Below, piece by piece: positions 2,980-57,807 of a stretch of DNA of 64,000 bases. This stretch comes from Escherichia phage Delraymugoa. The position numbers and the translations under genes are program-made. Under the pieces are notes generated by a model, which was not told the origin of the DNA, did no database searches, and saw only the letters and a program-made list of their open reading frames with translations. Numbering within the stretch: position 1 is the first letter of the stretch; every line of letters starts with the position of its first letter. The stretch lies in the sequence record OR896825.1, one strand, 5' to 3'.

Positions 2980-3244
2980 AATCATTCACTACCTTATCAG
3001 CTTCTTTTGTTGTTTTTACATCAACTGCGATAACTCGTAAAGGTTCGTCATGGTTCCACCAGTGGTCATGAATATCAGCTTGTGATTTATCACCAAAGGA
3101 ATCACGAATATCATTTTTACATTTATAGCTAATGTGACCTTCATAGTCAACATAAAGGTAATTATCGAAAATCGGCGTTTTTAAGATCATACCGAAAAAT
3201 CTTTCTTTGTGTGTCTTATCCAGCGTTGCAGTAATTCGCATCAT
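2966..3244 (-). CDS. hypothetical protein, HxHW-AVDV family
   Basis: HDHWW and VIAVDV motifs. Confidence 0.5.
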   Translation of the reverse strand: MMRITATLDKTHKERFFGMILKTPIFDNYLYVDYEGHISYKCKNDIRDSFGDKSQADIHDHWWNHDEPLRVIAVDVKTTKEADKVVNDYEQI

Positions 3245-3256
3245 AATATATTCCTC

Positions 3257-3436
3257 TTAGAAAGGGATGGTCATTTCTTGAGCTTGTACGTTCTCGTTAG
3301 GATTAAACTTCATCCAGCCGATATTGTCTACCAGCATATGCACATTTTTATCATATCCTACGTGGGTAGTCAATACTGTATGTGCTTTACCTTCAATGAT
3401 GAGTTCCATGTGCTTCTGAACTTCGATAGCTTTCAT
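3257..3436 (-). CDS. small hypothetical protein (59 aa), not in ORF track
   Basis: hand translation MKAIEVQKHMELIIEGKAHTVLTTHVGYDKNVHMLVDNIGWMKFNPNENVQAQEMTIPF; RBS and promoter upstream. Confidence 0.5.
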   Translation of the reverse strand: MKAIEVQKHMELIIEGKAHTVLTTHVGYDKNVHMLVDNIGWMKFNPNENVQAQEMTIPF

Positions 3437-3468
3437 TTTGATTCTCCGTTTGTTGTCTTGATGGGAGT

Positions 3469-3497
3469 ATCTTACTACTCCCTTTAATCATTGTCAA
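3469..3497 (-). promoter_or_regulatory. early promoter TTGACA-N17-TAAGAT with GGGAGTA...TACTCCC hairpin (PeSL)
   Basis: revcomp 3492-3497 TTGACA; hairpin gggagtatcttactactccc. Confidence 0.5.
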
Positions 3498-3500
3498 CTA

Positions 3501-3668
3501 TTATTTGTTAATTTCCGGTGCGTTGCTCGGATAGTAACCTTCTTTAACACCCAGATATTTTGCGACCATTCCGGTGATCTTCTGTGCTACTACGATATCG
3601 AATTTCAGGTAATCTTCACCGTGGTTTGCTACAATGTATGCTTCGCATTCTGCTTTAGTCTGGAACAT
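3501..3668 (-). CDS. small hypothetical protein (55 aa), paralog of 219..386 (start trimmed)
   Basis: MFQTKAECEAYIVANHGEDYLKFDIVVAQKITGMVAKYLGVKEGYYPSNAPEINK; ATG at 3666-3668 after conserved leader. Confidence 0.6.
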   Translation of the reverse strand: MFQTKAECEAYIVANHGEDYLKFDIVVAQKITGMVAKYLGVKEGYYPSNAPEINK

Positions 3669-3702
3669 TTTTGATTCTCCTATATCTCGTTGGTATGTGT
3701 GC

Positions 3703-3731
3703 ATTATAGGGGATCGGTGATCCCCTGTCAA
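3703..3731 (-). promoter_or_regulatory. early promoter TTGACA-N17-TATAAT with GGGGATCACCGATCCCC hairpin spacer (PeSL)
   Basis: revcomp 3726-3731 TTGACA; revcomp 3703-3708 TATAAT. Confidence 0.65.
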
Positions 3732-3738
3732 CAACTTT

Positions 3739-4047
3739 TTATTCTTCATCTTCATCTTTATCTTGATATGCGTACTTCATAAATTTGTCTGCTACTTTGT
3801 CCGCGTTTTCAGGTTCTACGTCTGACGCTAGGACAACAGCTAGTTCGGTTTTGTCGTTTCCATCATACCAATGATTATGAGTGTCGTTTTCTTCGATATA
3901 AAACGAATCATTTGGAGTTGTGCGACAATATACGTCTAAATTCCCATCGATATAAAAGATCCAATCCGAATACAAAATGATTGTTTTAGCAAGATTTTTA
4001 TTGCCTTCAACGAAAGGTTCGGCTACAAACAAATTAGTATGTTCCAT
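3739..4047 (-). CDS. hypothetical protein, HxHW-AVDV family (start trimmed to MEHTN)
   Basis: THNHW and ASDV motifs; RBS GAGGAAA before ATG 4045-4047. Confidence 0.5.
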   Translation of the reverse strand: MEHTNLFVAEPFVEGNKNLAKTIILYSDWIFYIDGNLDVYCRTTPNDSFYIEENDTHNHWYDGNDKTELAVVLASDVEPENADKVADKFMKYAYQDKDEDEE

Positions 4048-4063
4048 AGTAATTTCCTCAAAA

Positions 4064-4255
4064 TTATACAGCTTCGTAAACTTCCCAATGTCCAACACCA
4101 GCACGCTTAACGAAAAGGTTTTCTTTGATGTTATTCATAAACGTCTGGATGGATTTAATGCGATTTGAAGGTTTCCAGTCTTCGTTGGTATTGCGTCGAT
4201 ACATCATAACATTACCAGTTCGCTTATATTCAGCAACCATTTTAAGACCACACAT
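4064..4255 (-). CDS. small hypothetical protein (63 aa)
   Basis: ORF with RBS GAGGATAA. Confidence 0.4.
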   Translation of the reverse strand: MCGLKMVAEYKRTGNVMMYRRNTNEDWKPSNRIKSIQTFMNNIKENLFVKRAGVGHWEVYEAV

Positions 4256-11416: not shown

Positions 11417-12586
11417 TTACCAATCAATCTTATCAGCCGGAATAAGTTTCTTATAATTCCGTAGATAGTAAGTTTTCATTGAATCCAGAATACGGTCATA
11501 ATCAAGACCATCAAATGCAATCATCAGACACATGAAAATATATGCTTGTGCATCACCATGTTTACGTGATTCGATAGTCGCATTTGATGCATATGTCTTT
11601 CTGTCTTCTCCCGCGTGTGCGTTATAAAATTCTGTTGCTGTCGTGAAGGCATTGCGAAGAATAGACCTGAATGCTTCCTCGAATAGCTCGATTCGTTCCA
11701 GTGCTTCCGGTTCGCCTTCATATGCAGCACGCAAATCATCGGTTTCGCTTTCTACGACATAGTAGATCAGGTTATTAGGAAACATCGATGTGTTTTTAAT
11801 GTTATGCACACCAATATACCATTCACTCTTCACTTTGAACATTTGACCGTCTTTAGTGCGTGCAACAATTCCTTCGATACCTTCTGCGGTCCGAACTTCA
11901 TCAAGAATATTGCTAAAACGCGCTGAATCAACCTGTAACGCATTTACCAGATGAGGACGTAGGATTGCGTCAGCAAATAGCATTTGATGCGGTACGTACT
12001 CTCCTGTGACGTTATGGCGTACATTCAGAAGTGTTAGCGACGGTTCAGAATATTCTACAACAATTCGGTTGCTGGGTGCTGTATATTCAAAGTTGAAAGT
12101 ATAATCAGACCCAATATCAGCAATCTTAGCGCGTAGATCCGCATACTTCTCTGAATACAGAAGACCGTTTGCTCTCTCTGCCTGGCTTGAGTACAAGGCC
12201 GCTTTAGACTTCAACTGAACATAGCCGTTATCAATGTAGGTGCTTACTAGACTACCGTCCATTTTGTCCATGACCATTTCCACATCTTCCGGCTTAAAGC
12301 GAGCGCGATCATTCTCACCCAAATTAAAAAACTTCTCCATAGGACGAGATGCGATGCGGACCGGACGACCTTTATCGTCAATTTCAAACATGATCCCGCG
12401 ACACTCTAACGCATCTGGTTTATTCCACATTTCAGGTTTGCTCAAGTACAGATAGCTAAAAATGCGCATACGGGTTTGCATCGCCGTAATTTCATCTTTG
12501 TAATAGAACGTATCAGATCCGTCACATAGTGCCATCAGATTTTTGAACAATGCTAAAACTTTTTTGTTGTTTTCTTTTGTTGACAT
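11417..12586 (-). CDS. rnlA: RNA ligase 1
   Basis: LECRGIMFE...RIASRPMEKFFNL closely matches T4 Rnl1; 389 aa. Confidence 0.85.
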   Translation of the reverse strand: MSTKENNKKVLALFKNLMALCDGSDTFYYKDEITAMQTRMRIFSYLYLSKPEMWNKPDALECRGIMFEIDDKGRPVRIASRPMEKFFNLGENDRARFKPEDVEMVMDKMDGSLVSTYIDNGYVQLKSKAALYSSQAERANGLLYSEKYADLRAKIADIGSDYTFNFEYTAPSNRIVVEYSEPSLTLLNVRHNVTGEYVPHQMLFADAILRPHLVNALQVDSARFSNILDEVRTAEGIEGIVARTKDGQMFKVKSEWYIGVHNIKNTSMFPNNLIYYVVESETDDLRAAYEGEPEALERIELFEEAFRSILRNAFTTATEFYNAHAGEDRKTYASNATIESRKHGDAQAYIFMCLMIAFDGLDYDRILDSMKTYYLRNYKKLIPADKIDW

Positions 12587-12983
12587 AATTTGTGTTCCAT
12601 TCTGGTTTAAATTTGGTGATCAAAACAGGTTCTTCGATATCGGCAGTGCTTATAATATCTTTACCCGTTGGATTCTCAATATATAACTCAAAGCACTGTC
12701 GGTAATAGAATGTTACTGTCTTACCTTCCTCTAGCGCCTTATGAATATTCTTACTCTTGCGAGTATCCGCTGTTGGTGTTTGTCTGTTAATGCTAGTCCG
12801 GTAATAATTGATCCGCTTTCTGAGATTGACAGTCTGACCAATATATACCAGTTCATCATCAACAACAATAGCGTAAAGAACATTTAAACGGTTCTTCTGA
12901 GGCGGCAGAATCACATCACCATCTTTACACTCTAAACATGAATATTTAACGAATCCATAGTTTTCTATTAGCTCATTAATCAT
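12522..12983 (-). CDS. denA: GIY-YIG endonuclease (T4 endonuclease II-like)
   Basis: LYAIVVDDELVYIGQTVNLRKR GIY-YIG motif; position between rnlA and nrdB. Confidence 0.6.
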   Translation of the reverse strand: MINELIENYGFVKYSCLECKDGDVILPPQKNRLNVLYAIVVDDELVYIGQTVNLRKRINYYRTSINRQTPTADTRKSKNIHKALEEGKTVTFYYRQCFELYIENPTGKDIISTADIEEPVLITKFKPEWNTNYVNKRKQQKSFSIVQKSDGTM

Positions 12984-14326: not shown

Positions 14327-14803
14327 TTAATCATGACCGTGATTTGCAATATCCGCTCGCGTCTTATCTTTGTGATTTCCTACGTCAAAGACACGATAAC
14401 CATTTTCACGCAAAACTTTAATCACTTCTGGGTTATCCTCAAAGACTCCGACAACTTCATCTTTATCAAAGGATTTAATTACCTCTAATTTGATGTGATA
14501 GTCTTTACGGGAATCGGTACGGCCTCTCATAAAGATTTTATCAAAACACACCCCGTTAGAAATTAACCAATCAATTGTTTCCATGTAAGCATGTGAACTT
14601 CGTCCGGTGAGGATGTAAATCAAATGCCCGTTGTCGGAAAGAGCATTAATAACACGAATTACATCGTAAATGGGGGAATCACCCCCACATGCCTTGTTAT
14701 ATTCGATCCATGACTCGACTTTATCAAGATTTTCGGTTGGCATCTTTGCTAGTCGATGTGTTGGATCTGTGATCGTAAAATCTAAATCGACAAAATATAT
14801 CAT
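14327..14803 (-). CDS. HAD-superfamily phosphatase (possible nucleotidase)
   Basis: motif I DLDFT (DxDxT), motif II ILTGRS, motif IV FEDN. Confidence 0.55.
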   Translation of the reverse strand: MIYFVDLDFTITDPTHRLAKMPTENLDKVESWIEYNKACGGDSPIYDVIRVINALSDNGHLIYILTGRSSHAYMETIDWLISNGVCFDKIFMRGRTDSRKDYHIKLEVIKSFDKDEVVGVFEDNPEVIKVLRENGYRVFDVGNHKDKTRADIANHGHD

Positions 14804-15960
14804 AGATATTTCCCGAATCGGTTGTAGTCGTCGTCTGTTAAATCGGTATTAACCTGAGATACCAGATACATAATCTCTACTTCCTGCGCTGCATTCTGTA
14901 CTTCGTCAGAGTTCAACCATTTACGCATCCACGGTAACGGATGACGACGAACACTAAACGGGCTTTTCAGTCCGGCAGCACGCATACGGGAATCTGCCAG
15001 GTATTCTACATAGGTTTTCAGAATTTCCGGTGACAGGTTAGGAATTGCCCCCATTGCGAATAGGTGGTCTACCCATTCTTTTTCTTGCTCGACAACATCC
15101 AGAAAGATTTTCGTTGCTTCGCCTTCAAGTTCTTCCGCAATCTGTTTCCACTCATCACCATCAACCCCCGTTTGCCATTGACGAATAATGTATTGTGTGC
15201 CTTTTAAGTGAAGTTGTTCATCACGCGCAATAAATTTCATGATCTTCGCGTTACCTTCCAGTAAACCACGTTCGGCAAAGCTGAAAGTACATGCAAAGGA
15301 CACATAAAAACGAATTGCTTCCAGTGCATTGACGCAGTGTGCACACAGATAAATCGAAGCCATCAGATCTCGTTTTGTATCTTCAAAAAATCTTCTTGCA
15401 TCATCTAATGCTGTCTGGTCGTCTCGTTCTTCCCAATAGCGGAGATCTTCTTTTGCATTCTCATACTTACGAATCCAATAAAGAACATCATCATAATATT
15501 TCCCGATAGATTCCGCTCGCTTCATGATAGCAGGGTTATCGATGATCTGGTCGAACTCACTGGCCGGATCAATGAAACAGTTACGCATAATGTGTGTATA
15601 GCTTCGGCTATGAATCGTTTCGCTGAATGTCCATGTTTGCAACCATGTATCGAGAGTTGGATCAGATACAATTGGTCCAAATGCTGCGGACGGTGCGCGA
15701 CCTTGAATAGAATCAAGTAATGTCTGATACTTCAAGTTTTCAGTAAAGAAACGCTTTTCAACGTCACCCATATTAAGATATTGAATGCGGTCGGTTGCAA
15801 GTGAAATTTCTTCTGGACGCCAGAAAAATGACAATTGCTTTTCGATCAGTTCTTCAAATACTTGATGACGCTGAATATCATAGCGAGCGATACCCAACCC
15901 ACTACCCAGAAACATTGGTTCGTTCATAATATCAACATGTTCGCGGTTAAATACGCTCAT
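14800..15960 (-). CDS. nrdB: ribonucleotide reductase small subunit (uninterrupted, no intron)
   Basis: 386 aa, di-iron ferritin-like motifs, adjacent to nrdA. Confidence 0.9.
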   Translation of the reverse strand: MSVFNREHVDIMNEPMFLGSGLGIARYDIQRHQVFEELIEKQLSFFWRPEEISLATDRIQYLNMGDVEKRFFTENLKYQTLLDSIQGRAPSAAFGPIVSDPTLDTWLQTWTFSETIHSRSYTHIMRNCFIDPASEFDQIIDNPAIMKRAESIGKYYDDVLYWIRKYENAKEDLRYWEERDDQTALDDARRFFEDTKRDLMASIYLCAHCVNALEAIRFYVSFACTFSFAERGLLEGNAKIMKFIARDEQLHLKGTQYIIRQWQTGVDGDEWKQIAEELEGEATKIFLDVVEQEKEWVDHLFAMGAIPNLSPEILKTYVEYLADSRMRAAGLKSPFSVRRHPLPWMRKWLNSDEVQNAAQEVEIMYLVSQVNTDLTDDDYNRFGKYL

Positions 15961-15975
15961 TAATTCACCTCACTA

Positions 15976-16143
15976 TCACTTTTTAACACAAAAGAACTTA
16001 GTATTTCTGTTTATTTCGTTATCCTGTTGCAATTCCTGCACGGCTTCAAAACAGCTTTGATGTGATGAAAACTCCACGCTGGTAACAGTTCCTTTATTAT
16101 ATGAGCCTACACTAACGGAAAGCAATAACCATAATGTAGCCAT
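15976..16143 (-). CDS. small protein with hydrophobic N-terminus (55 aa), tandem paralog
   Basis: hand translation MATLWLLLSVSVGSYNKGTVTSVEFSSHQSCFEAVQELQQDNEINRNTKFFCVKK; start overlaps upstream stop (TAATG). Confidence 0.5.
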   Translation of the reverse strand: MATLWLLLSVSVGSYNKGTVTSVEFSSHQSCFEAVQELQQDNEINRNTKFFCVKK

Positions 16144-16316
16144 TAGTTCACCTTTTGTTTTTCAACGCAATATAGATTCATAAAGCGTTTATTGTCTTCG
16201 CGGATAATCTCGCGAGCTTTAACGCAATCCTGCTTTGTTGCAAATTCAATGCTTGACATATTTCCGTAATTATACATTGAATTGCTGATTGCAATCAATA
16301 ACCATACAGTAGCCAT
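16143..16316 (-). CDS. small protein with hydrophobic N-terminus (57 aa), tandem paralog
   Basis: hand translation MATVWLLIAISNSMYNYGNMSSIEFATKQDCVKAREIIREDNKRFMNLYCVEKQKVN; TAATG overlaps at both ends. Confidence 0.5.
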   Translation of the reverse strand: MATVWLLIAISNSMYNYGNMSSIEFATKQDCVKAREIIREDNKRFMNLYCVEKQKVN

Positions 16317-16483
16317 TATCCGACAACCTCAAAACATTTATCATCAGGAAGAATCGCCCATTCTACACCGTATTCATCCTCAACGTAGTAGCAAATTCCA
16401 TCATGTCGAGCATCATATTCATCACCGACAACAAAGCTATCAGCTAGCTCAAAATCTACAGCAACACATTTTAATTTGGTCAT
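16316..16483 (-). CDS. small acidic protein (55 aa, start trimmed to MTKLKCV)
   Basis: RBS GAGGAT before ATG 16481-16483; track start lies in promoter -35. Confidence 0.45.
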   Translation of the reverse strand: MTKLKCVAVDFELADSFVVGDEYDARHDGICYYVEDEYGVEWAILPDDKCFEVVG

Positions 16484-16514: not shown

Positions 16515-16543
16515 ATTATAGCGGGGATTTCTCCCCTCGTCAA
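16515..16543 (-). promoter_or_regulatory. early promoter TTGACG-N17-TATAAT with GCGGGGA..TCCCC hairpin; copy 1 of 42-bp direct repeat
   Basis: revcomp 16538-16543 TTGACG, revcomp 16515-16520 TATAAT. Confidence 0.6.
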
Positions 16544-16551
16544 CAGTTATT

Positions 16552-17391
16552 TTACAATCCATCGCAAGCATCAATATAAGCACTTACAAAACTTTCTATA
16601 AAAAGTGCTCCGACTTGAGGAACTATCGCATTGCCATAACCGCGCAATCGTCCCATTGTTGAGGATACCCCATCAGCCAACAAGGGAATCGTGGGTTCAA
16701 CAATTCGTTTTTTCCCGTCTCTGCATAGATACTCTGTTCCACTGTCCCAAAACCGTAATACATCTTCACTTGTTCTGATAAATTTCCCGGTGCTAGTGAT
16801 TTCCTCCCCGTTGCAAGTCTCGCTTCCATTCTCCGTTGCATTGCTTCCGGCGATCTTGCTGATATATTCGTTACAGTAGGTGTTTGCCAACTCGTTAATA
16901 GCCCCGAAGAAAAGTCTGTCCCGCTTGTGCGGCGCACCGACGATATCACATGATAATACCGCAGCCCCGACACTGTAACCTTCTCTTTCCAATTCCTCGT
17001 GAAGATCATCCAACCACCCCGTTTCGATAGCTTTTGCAACCTGTTCCCCAAAGAGCATTGGAGGTTTGCACGCTGACACGAGTTTAAGAAATGTCGGTGC
17101 AAGGTGTCTTTCGTCGAACTTTCCTTTTTGCTTTCCGGCTCTTGAAAATGGTTGACATGGTGGCGATCCAGTCCATAGTCTTGTTGTTTCTGGTACTCCA
17201 GCGAGTTGCAATGCTCTTGACCACCCCCCAATCCCCGCGAAGAAGTGACATTGTGTAAATCCTTCCAGATCTCTAGGGGTGACTTCTGTAATTGATCTTT
17301 CATCGACATACCCATAAGGAATTAATTTGTTTGCTATAAGTTCACGTAACCAATTAGCCGCGCCTTTATCCCACTCATTGTAATAATTCAT
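16552..17391 (-). CDS. C5-cytosine methyltransferase-like protein (compact, 279 aa)
   Basis: motif I FFAGIGG, motif IV GSPPCQPFSRAG, motif VI FGEQV, motif VIII KRDRLFF, motif X GYGNAIV. Confidence 0.65.
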   Translation of the reverse strand: MNYYNEWDKGAANWLRELIANKLIPYGYVDERSITEVTPRDLEGFTQCHFFAGIGGWSRALQLAGVPETTRLWTGSPPCQPFSRAGKQKGKFDERHLAPTFLKLVSACKPPMLFGEQVAKAIETGWLDDLHEELEREGYSVGAAVLSCDIVGAPHKRDRLFFGAINELANTYCNEYISKIAGSNATENGSETCNGEEITSTGKFIRTSEDVLRFWDSGTEYLCRDGKKRIVEPTIPLLADGVSSTMGRLRGYGNAIVPQVGALFIESFVSAYIDACDGL

Positions 17392-17409
17392 TCTTACAAT
17401 TCACCTCAC

Positions 17410-17438
17410 ATTATAGCGGGGATTTCTCCCCGCGTCAA
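17410..17438 (-). promoter_or_regulatory. early promoter TTGACG-N17-TATAAT; copy 2 of 42-bp direct repeat
   Basis: revcomp 17433-17438 TTGACG, revcomp 17410-17415 TATAAT. Confidence 0.6.
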
Positions 17439-17446
17439 CAGTTATT

Positions 17447-19690
17447 TTACAGCTTACAGGATGAACACTCGCTAGCGTCTTCCGTACCATCTGCACCGTC
17501 GCGAACGTTCGCATAATACAGGGTTTTCAGACCGTAATATTGAGCAAACAACATATCATCTAATACATCAGCAATATCGACTTTACCAGTCTTATAAGTG
17601 CTTGGATCGTAGGATGTGTTGGAACTAATCGCCTGATCTACAAACTTCTGCATGATCGCTGCCAGTGTCAGATAAGGCTTGTTACCTTTCTTGATCAGTG
17701 TCCAAAGCAGGTCAATAACATCAGCATTATTCTCTACGTTCGGAATAACCTGATTAAATTGCCCTTCTTTCGATCCTTTAACCGATACAATCCCGCGAGG
17801 CGGTTCAATACCGTTTGTGCTGTTAGATACCTGAGAAGATGACTCGCAAGGCATCAGCGCCGAAAGCGTACTGTTACGAATGCCATATTTTTTCAGGTCT
17901 TCGCGCAGTTCTTCCCAATCCATCTCATACACAGGATCAACCAGTTCATCTACTGTCTTTTTGTACCAGTCGATAGGAAGTTCACCGCGTCCATAACGTG
18001 TTTCATGCATCAGTTCGCAAGCACCCTTCTCTTTAGCCAGTTGCACACTAGCCTTAATCAGAGCATATTGCAAGCGTTCAAACGTTTTATGCGTAAACTC
18101 GTTAGCATCTTCATATGTGAAGAAATTATCTGCTAGATATGATGCAAAGTTAGTAACACCAACACCCAGAGAGCGACGTTTTTTGGCTGTCAGTGCTTGT
18201 TCTACAGGATAATCCTGATAATCTAACAGGTTGTCAAGTGCACGCACCATAACCATAGCAATGCGTTCTACTTCTTCCATATTTTCGATATCGAAATTAC
18301 CTAAAACATATGCTGCCAAAGTACATAGGCTAATTTCTGAATCATCACGACCCATCGGTTTTGTTGGCAGAGCAATTTCACAACACAGGTTAGATTGTTT
18401 AATCGGTGCTACATTACGAATAAACGCCCCGTGATTGTTCATGTTGTCTGTGAACGTTGGGTAGATTCGACCAGTGTTAAAACGTTCAATTGCCACCGCT
18501 AAAAACAGGTCTTCGGCTTTAACACGAGTTTTACGAACACTCGGATCTTTTTCCAGTTTTTCGTAAAGTTGGCGGAAACCTTCCTCATCTCGGAAGTATA
18601 GATCCCACAACAAGCCACCTGCAACATCTGGACTAAACAGAGTAATGTAATCCCGTTTAAGGAATCGCTCTACCATCAGGTTATTAATCTGTACGCCGTA
18701 GTCAAGATGGCGAATGCGGTTATCTTCCACGCCCTTATTGTTCTTTAACACAATCAGACTTTCAAACTCTAAATGCCACATTGGGTAATAGAGTGTCGCT
18801 GCCCCGCCACGAATACCGCCTTGTGAGCATGACTTAACGGCAGTCTGAAAATGTTTCCAGAATGGGATAACTCCAGTATGACGAACTTCACCATGCCCGA
18901 TCTTAGATCCTTCCGCGCGAATCATGCCAGCGTTGATACCGATACCAGCACGCTTGCTAATATACTTGATGATTGCATTTGCGGTTTCATTAATACCCTG
19001 CAATGAGTCATCACTTTCAATCACCACACACGAACTAAATTGGCGTGTTGGGGTACGCACACCTGCCATAATCGGAGTAGGCAGAGAGATTTGCTTATTC
19101 GCAACAGCATTATAAAAATCAATCACATGTTCAAGTCGATTTTCTGTCTCTTCTTGATGCAAGCACATACCGATCAACATATACGCAAATTGCGGTGTTT
19201 CGATGATTTTCTTAGTGCTGCGATCTTGAACAAGATATTTCTCTTTTAACTGCATCGCACCAGCATAGGTCATTTTAAAATCAAGTTTATGGTCGATGAA
19301 TTTCTCCAGATATTCCACTTCTTCACGGGAATACTTTTGCAGAATTTCGCGATCATATTTTCCGGTTGCAATATTACGCTCAATATGGCTGTAAAAATCA
19401 ATCGGTTGGAATTGACCGTATACTGATTTGCGAAGCGCGAACATTGCAAGGTTACTTGCTACATATTGATAATCGGGTGTTTCTACCGTGATGTTATCTG
19501 CGGCGACCTTAATCAATACTTTCTGGATATCATTGGTAGACATACCTTCTGTCAGAAGTGGTTCAACCATATCAAACAATTCATATGGATCAACGTTATG
19601 ACCTTCGGCTGCCGCTTCCAGAATTTTCATTACTTTTTCTTTTTCAAACGGAACAGTCAGACCGGAAGACTTAACAACATTTTTAATCAT
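17447..19690 (-). CDS. nrdA: ribonucleotide reductase large subunit
   Basis: 747 aa, catalytic motifs incl. NLCCEI and C-terminal CxxC tail. Confidence 0.95.
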   Translation of the reverse strand: MIKNVVKSSGLTVPFEKEKVMKILEAAAEGHNVDPYELFDMVEPLLTEGMSTNDIQKVLIKVAADNITVETPDYQYVASNLAMFALRKSVYGQFQPIDFYSHIERNIATGKYDREILQKYSREEVEYLEKFIDHKLDFKMTYAGAMQLKEKYLVQDRSTKKIIETPQFAYMLIGMCLHQEETENRLEHVIDFYNAVANKQISLPTPIMAGVRTPTRQFSSCVVIESDDSLQGINETANAIIKYISKRAGIGINAGMIRAEGSKIGHGEVRHTGVIPFWKHFQTAVKSCSQGGIRGGAATLYYPMWHLEFESLIVLKNNKGVEDNRIRHLDYGVQINNLMVERFLKRDYITLFSPDVAGGLLWDLYFRDEEGFRQLYEKLEKDPSVRKTRVKAEDLFLAVAIERFNTGRIYPTFTDNMNNHGAFIRNVAPIKQSNLCCEIALPTKPMGRDDSEISLCTLAAYVLGNFDIENMEEVERIAMVMVRALDNLLDYQDYPVEQALTAKKRRSLGVGVTNFASYLADNFFTYEDANEFTHKTFERLQYALIKASVQLAKEKGACELMHETRYGRGELPIDWYKKTVDELVDPVYEMDWEELREDLKKYGIRNSTLSALMPCESSSQVSNSTNGIEPPRGIVSVKGSKEGQFNQVIPNVENNADVIDLLWTLIKKGNKPYLTLAAIMQKFVDQAISSNTSYDPSTYKTGKVDIADVLDDMLFAQYYGLKTLYYANVRDGADGTEDASECSSCKL

Positions 19691-19737: not shown

Positions 19738-19753
19738 GGGGGCTTTCGCCCCC
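19738..19753. other. GC hairpin GGGGGC-tttc-GCCCCC between td and nrdA
   Basis: perfect 6-bp stem; T-run follows on plus strand only. Confidence 0.4.
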
Positions 19754-19758
19754 TTTGT

Positions 19759-20991
19759 TTATACTGCCATTTGAGCGGTGATTGCTGGATGGCTTTGATA
19801 GTTGTGAATTTTAAAGTCTTTCGGAGTCTTTGTCAATACCTCATCTAAAGATTTAAATTCCGGCAACTCAATCGTTGGTTTATCAAACGGAACACGGCTT
19901 AACTGTTCCATAACTTGATCAAAATGGTTTTTGTAAATGTGAGTATCTCCACCAGAGAAAATCAGTTCTCCTACCTCAAGATCACACATTTTCGCTATGA
20001 TGTGAGTTAACAGCGCATAGCTGGCGACGTTAAAGGGCAAGCCTAAAAAGCTGTCTACGCTTCGCTGAAACCACATACAAGACAGTTTACCTTCATTGAC
20101 GTAGAATTGCACGAAAGGATGACATACACCCAATACAGCATTATGTGTTCCTTGTACGTTCCATGAGTCAATAATGATCCGGCGATCCGTTGGATTGTTT
20201 TTAATTTGTTCAATCACGTTTTGTAACTGGTCTTCCCAAATCTTCGGGCGATAGACATATTCTTCATCGTCTTTAGTGCTCGATGTGTCTACGTCCATAC
20301 TAGCAAAGATCGTGGTATCTGGCGCTAAAATATCCCCGCCCAGATAATCACTATCAAGCAGATAACCGAAATAACCATCATCTACCCATTCCTGGAATCC
20401 CCACAAGCAATATGCATCATTAACAAAATTAGATTGAGTCTTCCAGTGGTCTGCTACTAAGAATTGATTATATTCAGAATCAAACTCTTCATAACGCATA
20501 CCACGCCAGATAGCACATAAACGGTCTTCTGTGTCGTTGGTTGGCGTAAAGTCTTCTACCCACGGGTGTTTAAATGTATGTGTATATTTGCTCTTAACGC
20601 GCTTAATTTTGATTTCACCATGTGGATGAATCGGTTTGCGTCGCCATGCCATACCATACATATTACCGACATTATAACCATTGAATCGCAAAGGATTCTT
20701 TTCTTTCATATCAAGACAGTTGCCGCGCCAAATATCAAAGGCTTCCTCGTCAAACTTGCCACGTGTAATTTCCTGTAAGCGACGACGGTCAAGTGATCCC
20801 TCCATAAACCATAGCAATTCGCCAATTACAGAGGCTGTAGCCATCTTTTTAGTGGTCAGTAAGGGGAAACCCTTGCTTAAGTCAATTCGCATTTCTGCAC
20901 CGAATTTAGAGAGCGTACCTACCCCCGTTCGGTCTTCACGAGGCCAACCATTATCAAGAACATCACGCAACAGTTTCAAATATTCTTTCAT
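19759..20991 (-). CDS. td: thymidylate synthase with ~120-aa internal insertion
   Basis: conserved CHPFVQFYV, LSCMWFQRSVD, FLGLPFN (Asn = dUMP specificity); 410 aa vs 264-286 typical. Confidence 0.9.
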   Translation of the reverse strand: MKEYLKLLRDVLDNGWPREDRTGVGTLSKFGAEMRIDLSKGFPLLTTKKMATASVIGELLWFMEGSLDRRRLQEITRGKFDEEAFDIWRGNCLDMKEKNPLRFNGYNVGNMYGMAWRRKPIHPHGEIKIKRVKSKYTHTFKHPWVEDFTPTNDTEDRLCAIWRGMRYEEFDSEYNQFLVADHWKTQSNFVNDAYCLWGFQEWVDDGYFGYLLDSDYLGGDILAPDTTIFASMDVDTSSTKDDEEYVYRPKIWEDQLQNVIEQIKNNPTDRRIIIDSWNVQGTHNAVLGVCHPFVQFYVNEGKLSCMWFQRSVDSFLGLPFNVASYALLTHIIAKMCDLEVGELIFSGGDTHIYKNHFDQVMEQLSRVPFDKPTIELPEFKSLDEVLTKTPKDFKIHNYQSHPAITAQMAV

Positions 20992-56708: not shown

Positions 56709-57212
56709 TTAAATTAAAGAAAATTTGTAAATCTCTATCAGATCGCCATTACACGCGTAAACTTCCTCGATCTCATCAAGGATCATGGTCGTCCCTGTCT
56801 TGTATATGCACTCGCGCTCATCTGCCAACATAGCATACAAAGACAGTCGAGTAGTCGGATTGTCATACTCTTTAGACACCACTCGGTCAATAGCATGTTC
56901 GTAATAATTCATGCAAGGCTTGGTAGGTTTTATTGCAATAATCTTTCCTGTTGCATAAACATCGGTCGCAAAGTCCTCTGCTGTTGATTGCAGTGGCGTA
57001 AAGCTCATAGGACGCTCTACAACGAAAGAATCGCCTACAATTAAGGTATCCAGCTTACGACCTTCTCTTTTGCTCACACCGCGATACAAGGCTTCATGAT
57101 GCACTAACCGCTCAGTCTTTTCGATCAATCCATTAAGGATCGACATATCGATATTTTCTTTAGAGTTCATCACTTCATCAATGATGTTAAGTTCTTCTGG
57201 TGTAAATTGCAT
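56709..57212 (-). CDS. possible ADP-ribosyltransferase-like protein (ModA/ModB position)
   Basis: candidate R-S-E elements (LYRG, QSTAED, ERE); placement between dda and 56 as T4 modA/modB. Confidence 0.3.
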   Translation of the reverse strand: MQFTPEELNIIDEVMNSKENIDMSILNGLIEKTERLVHHEALYRGVSKREGRKLDTLIVGDSFVVERPMSFTPLQSTAEDFATDVYATGKIIAIKPTKPCMNYYEHAIDRVVSKEYDNPTTRLSLYAMLADERECIYKTGTTMILDEIEEVYACNGDLIEIYKFSLI

Positions 57213-57282: not shown

Positions 57283-57807
57283 TTAGTAGCCGCGTTCTTG
57301 ACGGGCGAAGTTTTCAGCATTTTTCAGATAGTACAGAATAAAGAGTTCTTGAGCGTCAATACCCAGCGGGATCATCTTTGACAGAATGAAGTGGATCGCG
57401 TCCACAAATTCAAATTTCACTTCAAGCTGATCTTCCGGTGACAGTTCAGAGAATTTACGCGCTCGCGCTTCTCCGTGGTTCTTTTTCCACATTTTCCAGA
57501 TTGCACTTGCATCTTTACCATTGGACATTCCACCCAGCGATGTGTAAAGCTCTCGTGTTTCGTCTGCGATAGCGTCATCCATCCGTTGCATCCAATCCAG
57601 CATTTCACCGCAAGTCTCTAGCTTAGTTGGATTTGGGACCCAATCAAATTTTTCGGATAATGCAACCTGCAAACCAGTTTGCATTTCGAGCATCACCTGA
57701 AACGGATCTTTACCTTCTGCAATAGCGTGATGATATGCGGCGATAGCCGCGTTAATATCTTTTTCGTTAACCAGACCAGCACAAGAATTAAATTCTGACA
57801 TATTCAC
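57283..57807 (-). CDS. 56: dCTP pyrophosphatase (MazG-like, gp56)
   Basis: 174 aa, MazG-like helical pattern, position adjacent to gene 61. Confidence 0.55.
   Translation of the reverse strand: MNMSEFNSCAGLVNEKDINAAIAAYHHAIAEGKDPFQVMLEMQTGLQVALSEKFDWVPNPTKLETCGEMLDWMQRMDDAIADETRELYTSLGGMSNGKDASAIWKMWKKNHGEARARKFSELSPEDQLEVKFEFVDAIHFILSKMIPLGIDAQELFILYYLKNAENFARQERGY

Follow-up and report, generated by a model that had tools for sequence, protein, structure and literature searches.

Escherichia phage Delraymugoa (sequence record OR896825.1) carries, within the 64,000-nt stretch that we analysed (the window, to which all coordinates refer unless stated otherwise), a 279-aa ORF between nrdA and nrdB whose product has the fold of the C5-cytosine methyltransferases (C5 MTases) and which is bracketed by two near-identical copies of a promoter/stem-loop element. 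We consider it probable that this methylase gene is the cargo of an accessory cassette borne by promoter-early stem-loop (PeSL) elements, and that it specifies an orphan S-adenosylmethionine (SAM)-dependent DNA 5-methylcytosine (m5C) methyltransferase in an RB49-like phage with ordinary cytosine.

PeSL copies and an insertion polymorphism between nrdA and nrdB

The methylase ORF lies, like all features of the locus described below, on the minus strand; it occupies 16552..17391, starts with ATG, and contains the FFAGIGG, PPCQPFS, GEQV, HKRDRLFF and YGNAIV sequences expected from a preliminary description of this DNA. The direct repeats reported there are likewise present: 42 nt each, at 16515-16556 and 17410-17451, identical at 41 of 42 positions and spaced 895 nt from start to start. 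Read on the coding strand the repeat is TGTAAAATAACTGTTGACG[C/A]GGGGAGAAATCCCCGCTATAAT. Each copy takes in the 3' end of the gene before it, nrdA or the methylase ORF, from the second base of the terminal Leu codon through the TAA stop, and finishes exactly at the -10 hexamer. Both copies present the promoter TTGACG-N17-TATAAT, an 11/12 match to the sigma-70 consensus TTGACA-N17-TATAAT, with TGTAAAATAAC immediately 5' of the -35 box and a 7-bp G/C stem closed by a GAAA loop within the 17-nt spacer. In the upstream copy, the two Leu-codon bases and the stop codon of nrdA (TAA, 17449-17447; gene 17447..19690) are followed by an AT-rich stretch, the -35 (TTGACG, 17438-17433), the stem-loop (GCGGGGA-GAAA-TCCCCGC, 17433-17416) and the -10 (TATAAT, 17415-17410); in the downstream copy the methylase stop is at 16554-16552, the -35 at 16543-16538 and the -10 at 16520-16515. 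Folded as RNA, the upstream copy gives -16.9 kcal/mol (z = -3.55) and the downstream copy -12.4 kcal/mol (z = -2.64), the weaker stem of the latter being due to a single substitution, A for C after TTGACG.

When the window is shuffled, a degenerate form of the element is expected 0.00 times. A scan found seven elements of the type on the minus strand of the window (at 175, 420, 3703, 4865, 5259, 16515 and 17410). These are the features of the PeSLs described in RB49 and phi1 (Arbiol, Comeau, Kutateladze, Adamia & Krisch 2010, PMC2839356; Comeau, Arbiol & Krisch 2014, PMC4122927): a near-perfect sigma-70 promoter (TTGACA-N17-TATAAT), a stem-loop made of a G-run, a loop and a C-run, an AT-rich region upstream, and presence in many copies, flanking accessory ORFs that differ between close relatives. 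By their sequence, then, both 42-nt repeats are PeSLs. In RB49 and phi1, PeSLs have been shown to mediate the acquisition and loss of genes (Arbiol et al. 2010, PMC2839356), and for other members of the class promoter activity, terminator activity and recombination between neighbouring copies into mini-circles have been shown experimentally (PMC2839356).

Between the -10 hexamer of the upstream PeSL and the methylase ATG lies an 18-nt leader, GTGAGGTGAATTGTAAGA (17392..17409), with a Shine-Dalgarno-like GAGGTGA; it is part of the cassette and is missing from cassette-free relatives in the junction alignment. On the other side, the downstream PeSL is predicted to drive a conserved small ORF that lies 3' of it. 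This 55-aa ORF (MTKLKCVAV..., 16316..16483; phrog_16302, the equivalent of RB49p233) stands directly 3' of the single PeSL in relatives that lack the cassette; it is thus outside the insertion and marks the original junction.

The nrdA-nrdB interval matched 113 phage records, of which the 51 that span most of it were used to compare coverage. Krischvirus (RB49-like) coliphages match it best, with 96-99% identity, and on this sequence evidence the source phage is itself a Krischvirus. Comparison across relatives, as the preliminary description had proposed, showed that the gene is far from general: the whole interval is present in 2 of the 51 records, vB-Eco-KMB43 (OR525698) and LF73P4 (OZ035795), and the remaining ~49 cover 83% of it in two pieces. 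RB49, GEC-3S, PTE-Eco09 and FL38 have a single PeSL and no methylase gene at the site, and the gap in these four is exactly 42+835+18 = 895 nt. In RB49 and GEC-3S the one PeSL runs straight into the 55-aa ORF with its leader; in KMB43 and the window the nrdA-proximal PeSL is followed by the other 18-nt leader and the methylase ORF, after which the second PeSL restores the original junction.

The three carriers share the cassette at 99.0-99.3% identity, and an identical KMB43 cassette is already deposited and annotated. Flanking sequence tells a different tale: in nrdB the window shows 92% identity to the carriers KMB43 and LF73P4 but 99% to RB49, FL38 and GEC-3S, none of which has the cassette. 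Possession of the cassette is thus uncoupled from the haplotype around it, a pattern expected if recombination exchanges cassette or flanks among members of the genus. The upstream PeSL copies of the three carriers are identical; the downstream copy of the window differs from those of KMB43 and LF73P4 at 3 of 42 positions, which gene conversion between PeSL copies may have brought about. The ORFs also vary. The KMB43 ORF has TCA in place of the TAA stop and continues for four more codons, into the -35 box; in LF73P4 (3244-4093 of the compared stretch) a 2-nt deletion in the linker described below leaves a 198-aa ORF and the C-terminal part in another frame, representing either a pseudogene or an assembly error.

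T4 has mobE between nrdA and nrdB (PMC2790892), as the preliminary description correctly stated, and PTE-Eco09 (PQ306574, 2668-3315 of the compared stretch) has a homing-endonuclease gene immediately upstream of nrdB; the nrdA-nrdB interval is accordingly an insertion hot spot. We considered whether the repeats could be a target-site duplication made by a transposon or homing element, and rejected this because the repeat is a regulatory element already present in single copy in relatives and because the cassette has neither transposase nor nuclease. Composition was also examined as a sign of foreign origin; the ORF is 45.5% GC, nrdA and nrdB 42% and the window 40.5%, with GC3 about equal, and we place no reliance on so weak a difference.

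The methylase protein and its motif order

Profile searches upheld the methyltransferase assignment. The protein matches Pfam PF00145 at 3.6e-19, over aa 72-170 only, and PHROG 363 ('DNA methyltransferase') from end to end at 1.6e-71; its score against TIGR00675 is below the family cut-off. It has a class I SAM-MTase fold with a C5-MTase catalytic domain, along which the elements succeed one another as motif II (NEWD, aa 5-8), a III-like VDERSI (aa 29-34), motif I (FFAGIGG, aa 50-56), IV (SPPCQPFS, with Cys79), VI (GEQV, Glu116), VIII (HKRDR, Arg157 and Arg159), a linker (~aa 171-217), a hairpin module (~aa 215-247) and IX/X (RLRGYGNAIVP, Asn254). FFAGIGG, C79, E116, R157, R159 and N254 are invariant in an alignment of 43 homologues. 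The ORF is under purifying selection, dN/dS being 0.27 against the Seunavirus homologue and 0.14 against KMB43.

The order of these motifs departs from the collinear I-to-X arrangement of C5 MTases. When aligned with M.HhaI by HMMER, query aa 3-13 (YYNEWDKGAAN) correspond to chain 37-47, which is motif II; aa 36-66 (...FFAGIGGWSRALQLAG) to chain 3-33, which is motif I; and aa 67-163 to chain 70-169, motifs IV-VIII. Moving aa 43-67 ahead of aa 2-42 in silico raises the PF00145 score from 69.8 to 90.8 bits and extends coverage of the profile from 64-166 to 5-166. The order of secondary-structure elements predicted in the AF2 model agrees: an initial strand-helix-strand unit is followed by the strand and helix of motif I, and these by the strand of motif IV. 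Alignment and predicted element order together indicate that in this family motifs II-III precede motif I. According to a 2018 survey (PMC5944983), nature departs from the I-X order only through circular permutations, located in the variable region, that put motifs IX-X first; the search criterion of that survey is one that could not detect a II-III/I swap. No earlier description of such a swap was found in the literature searched.

The preliminary description had also assigned the protein a short variable region of ~85 aa. The length is right, though the region does not look like a conventional recognition domain: aa 171-217, hypervariable in length as well as sequence, have pLDDT < 50 and are followed by ~35 conserved residues, W215...G247 (W215, C223, D225, G226, K227, R229...), and then by the fused motifs IX/X. 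Alignment and model thus depict a recognition region that is mostly hypervariable linker. No target motif could be assigned from it, the region being common to no characterised relative and the PDB matches spanning the catalytic domain only.

The family is a large one. At least 7,991 proteins belong to it, matches among the 8,000 candidates scored; the first 90 residues alone identify at least 3,458 clusters (50% identity) at E<=1e-10, and among the matches listed the N-terminal module match nearly always begins at residue 1 of the protein. Members in the phage collection include proteins of coliphages K1H and K1ind, of N15 (gp58), and of phages of Klebsiella, Rhodobacter, Xanthomonas and Burkholderia. 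The only Krischvirus matches above 90% identity there are KMB43 and LF73P4, and the only Straboviridae members are the three copies of this cassette. Outside Krischvirus the nearest relatives are in Vequintavirus (75% nucleotide identity) and Seunavirus (68%), with homology confined to the ORF. In Vequintavirinae-type genomes the homologues lie among genes for a phosphoesterase, a T4-type RNA ligase, an AAA_33 kinase, Sir2 and a DNA ligase; the CarlMeissner homologue adjoins a putative homing endonuclease and has SPCCQ and NDND instead of SPPCQ and NEWD.

Phage annotation routinely calls members of the family 'DNA cytosine methyltransferase'; neither a biochemically characterised member nor an experimental report for the PHROG 363-type family was found in the literature searched. 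We advance, tentatively and as a rather unlikely case, a broader proposal: that these proteins form a very large, biochemically untouched clade with the C5-MTase fold in which the motif I strand-helix has moved, non-circularly, to a position between III and IV, and the recognition domain has shrunk to a hairpin and linker, with an atypical substrate rule to match. Such a rule could be a very short or degenerate DNA motif, methylation coupled to replication or of single strands, or tRNA, and if the proposal is true PeSL cassettes would be vehicles spreading enzymes of this kind into T4-like phages with unmodified cytosine. A swapped order and a seemingly minimal recognition region in a family of thousands deserve a biochemical look.

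Substrate, role and history of the cassette

A dCTPase-like ORF elsewhere in the window (57283-57807, minus strand) had raised the worry that cytosine in this phage might be substituted and not open to methylation. The ORF is real, a gp56-type NTP pyrophosphohydrolase (PF08761, 24.8 bits; phrog_173, 5e-37), but the worry was misplaced: gene 56 is present in nearly all T4-like phages and gene 42 (dCMP hydroxymethylase) is missing in the RB49 type (PMC2993671 Table 4), and RB49 cytosine is unmodified, its DNA being cut by HpaII and NheI and shown to be without hydroxymethylcytosine (hmC) and glucosylated hydroxymethylcytosine (PMC4041780). Krischvirus genomes are reported to have no homologues of hmC synthases, and the cytosine of Krischvirus phage TB34 to be canonical (PMC13390438). 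With gene 42 missing from the RB49 type and hmC absent from RB49 DNA, ordinary cytosine is available in the phage DNA; a hydroxymethylcytosine genome was rejected on the literature for RB49-type phages, gene 56 not being diagnostic. One Krischvirus, SAP, is reported to carry an unexplained cytosine modification though it is 99.96% identical to the unmodified TB34 (PMC13390438). The methylase cassette is absent from both, and since the search of the phage collection showed no close homologue in SAP either, its modification is not explained by the methylase gene. Beside the gene-56 homologue, a 167-aa ORF (56709-57212, minus strand) matches the C-terminal part of the 'RNA polymerase ADP-ribosylase' phrog_832 at 1e-20; it has no Pfam match.

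The preliminary description took the locus for a cassette inserted by recombination at repeated regulatory elements. The insertion polymorphism and the identity of the repeats as PeSLs bear this out; the direction and mechanism of the event are what we infer. An 895-bp, one-gene cassette, consisting of the leader, the methylase ORF and one PeSL, would have entered by recombining homologously with the PeSL that already stood just 3' of nrdA. In line with the model of Arbiol, Comeau and Krisch, it most likely came either on a circle bearing a PeSL, which integrated, or from the genome of a co-infecting phage, by a crossover; recombination of either kind would leave one PeSL copy on each side. 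The methylase would then be transcribed early, from the sigma-70-type PeSL promoter, by read-through from nrdA, or both; read-through may matter because the -10 ends 18 nt before the ATG, such that most of GAGGTGA would be missing from any transcript begun at the promoter within the cassette. The enzyme would mark a short motif in replicating phage DNA independently of the methylation state of the host, and progeny would resist 5-methylcytosine (5mC)-sensitive restriction enzymes whatever their previous host. The likely cost is that type IV enzymes which depend on 5mC, McrBC among them, could attack the DNA. RB49-type phages are without arn (PMC2993671), and such a cost, with arn absent, could account for the cassette being rare and for one copy being frameshifted. 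Any protection is probably narrow in range: although Vequintavirinae carry homologues of the methylase, they have been reported as exceptionally sensitive to the restriction-modification systems tested. There is no cognate restriction endonuclease beside the methylase, the cassette holding a single ORF and its neighbours, nrdA and the small ORFs, being present in cassette-free relatives too.

The history could in principle run backwards, the cassette being ancestral in Krischvirus and most lineages having deleted it between the flanking PeSLs, with the three carriers retaining it. Repeats 42 nt long in direct orientation lend themselves well to deletion, the gap in the relatives is exactly one repeat unit, and excision products between neighbouring PeSLs were detected by Arbiol et al. 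(PMC2839356). Yet only three carriers stand against about 49 non-carriers, carriers with up to 8% divergence in their flanks share the cassette at 99% identity, and the nearest homologues of the gene outside the genus, those of Vequintavirinae, share the ORF and nothing beyond it. Ancestral presence with repeated deletion fits this rarity and identity less well than acquisition of the cassette at a resident PeSL, and we judge it unlikely.

Other readings concern the protein. It might be a tRNA m5C methyltransferase of DNMT2 type that protects or tunes tRNAs, against host anticodon nucleases for instance, while the DNA stays unmodified; the ORF shows neither the CFT motif of DNMT2 in its recognition region nor closest similarity to DNMT2, and we hold this improbable. 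Its activity could instead be the transfer of a non-methyl group, such as carboxymethyl from host carboxy-SAM (Cx-SAM), as carried out by phage CmoX, a DNA cytosine C5-carboxymethyltransferase, and so begin a hypermodification of cytosine. In E. coli, Cx-SAM is made by CmoA. The top Foldseek match of the methylase is the CmoX structure, 8yf3, with which it has in common the C5-MTase fold, an SPPC motif IV, a signature of CmoX, and a phage origin. CmoX enzymes are recognised by SPPC together with Arg at the position of M.HhaI Asn304, and by linkage to CmoA (and CmoY), and CmoX with the R350N change has no activity whichever cofactor is supplied (PMC12783734). The residue that sets selectivity is here the family-invariant Asn254 of GNAIV, not the Cx-SAM-binding Arg that CmoX requires; the one-gene cassette brings neither CmoA nor CmoY; and sequence similarity to 8yf3 is weak (profile 8e-07, no significant stretch). 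We rejected carboxymethylation of the CmoX type on the Asn/Arg difference, and the chance that any non-methyl group is transferred appears slight in the extreme. The ORF might also be a dead gene, borne as a passenger between the two regulatory repeats. The frameshift in LF73P4 could be cited for this, as could the length of the ORF, which is among the shortest forms of the family and lacks a segment that longer members conserve. Yet every catalytic and cofactor residue is intact, dN/dS is well below 1, and similar short forms (264-284 aa) are conserved in Seunavirus, Vequintavirus and coliphages of the Dhillonvirus/Kagunavirus range (41-45 kb genomes); intact motifs and purifying selection together make a remnant very improbable. 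A working DNA m5C methylase delivered by PeSL recombination is the reading that we favour.

Neighbouring genes and comparison with known systems

In transcription order the block begins with td (19759-20991), followed by nrdA, and the interval ends at nrdB (14800..15960) after three small conserved ORFs. The first of these is the 55-aa ORF at the junction; the other two, of 55 and 57 aa (15976-16143 and 16143-16316), are tandem paralogues that both belong to phrog_5579 and share a 26-nt repeat where they start, and look like a local duplication within the interval. The td product is a thymidylate synthase of 410 aa, the same length as the RB49 version, in which PF00303 matches in two stretches and which hence appears to carry an in-frame insertion of ~125 aa in mid-protein. 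Between td and nrdA there is a hairpin, GGGGGC-GAAA-GCCCCC in the minus-strand reading (19738-19753), and just upstream of it, inside the 3' end of td, a strong promoter-like TTGACA-N17-TAAAAT (19808-19836): PeSL-like parts in another arrangement. Further off, an ORF at 12522-12983 (minus strand) codes for a GIY-YIG-type endonuclease (phrog_1111, 2e-52) and overlaps the 5' end of an RNA ligase/gp63-like gene (11417-12586); it is probably a seg-like free-standing homing endonuclease.

Both components of the methylase locus, PeSL-mediated shuffling and orphan phage m5C methylases, are of kinds already known. Their conjunction is a clean natural example for the PeSL model, a recognisable gene caught between promoter/terminator copies inside a conserved metabolic operon, and the mechanism is directly testable because empty and filled sites both exist in near-identical genomes. 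The same genomes amount to an isogenic-like pair for gauging what a lone m5C methylase is worth to a T4-like phage without hydroxymethylcytosine, and pose the trade-off between protection from some type II enzymes and exposure to those of McrBC type. The family-wide swap of motifs I and II-III, together with a seemingly vestigial recognition region, is worth following in its own right.

Set beside the PeSL cassettes of RB49 and phi1, the methylase cassette shares the promoter, the stem-loop, the AT-rich upstream region and the many copies per genome, as well as the flanking of single accessory ORFs and indel boundaries that lie within the element. It differs in that published cargoes are mostly ORFans in hyperplastic regions, whereas this cargo has a recognisable enzymatic function and its site is inside the conserved td-nrdA-nrdB nucleotide-metabolism block. 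With T4 mobE, a free-standing HNH homing endonuclease, it has in common that a mobile accessory gene occupies the same intergenic interval; unlike mobE, the methylase has no nuclease domain (no HNH or GIY-YIG domain was found in the ORF, family searches matching methyltransferases only), and its mobility would come from repeat-mediated recombination, not from cleavage and homing. The orphan phage C5 MTases (PF00145; PHROG 363; the 'putative C-specific methylase' of K1H and K1ind, and N15 gp58) are of the same family, with the same N-terminal module and catalytic residues and, like the window's protein, no linked restriction enzyme; amino-acid identity to the Vequintavirus and Seunavirus proteins is 55-68%. 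M.HhaI and M.HaeIII share with it the fold, the catalytic Cys in PCQ, the ENV-type Glu, RxR and the GN of motif X, and its catalytic loop, GKQKG, is identical to that of M.HhaI; it is set apart from both by the placing of motifs II-III before motif I and by the fusion of motifs IX and X in RLRGYGNAIVP.

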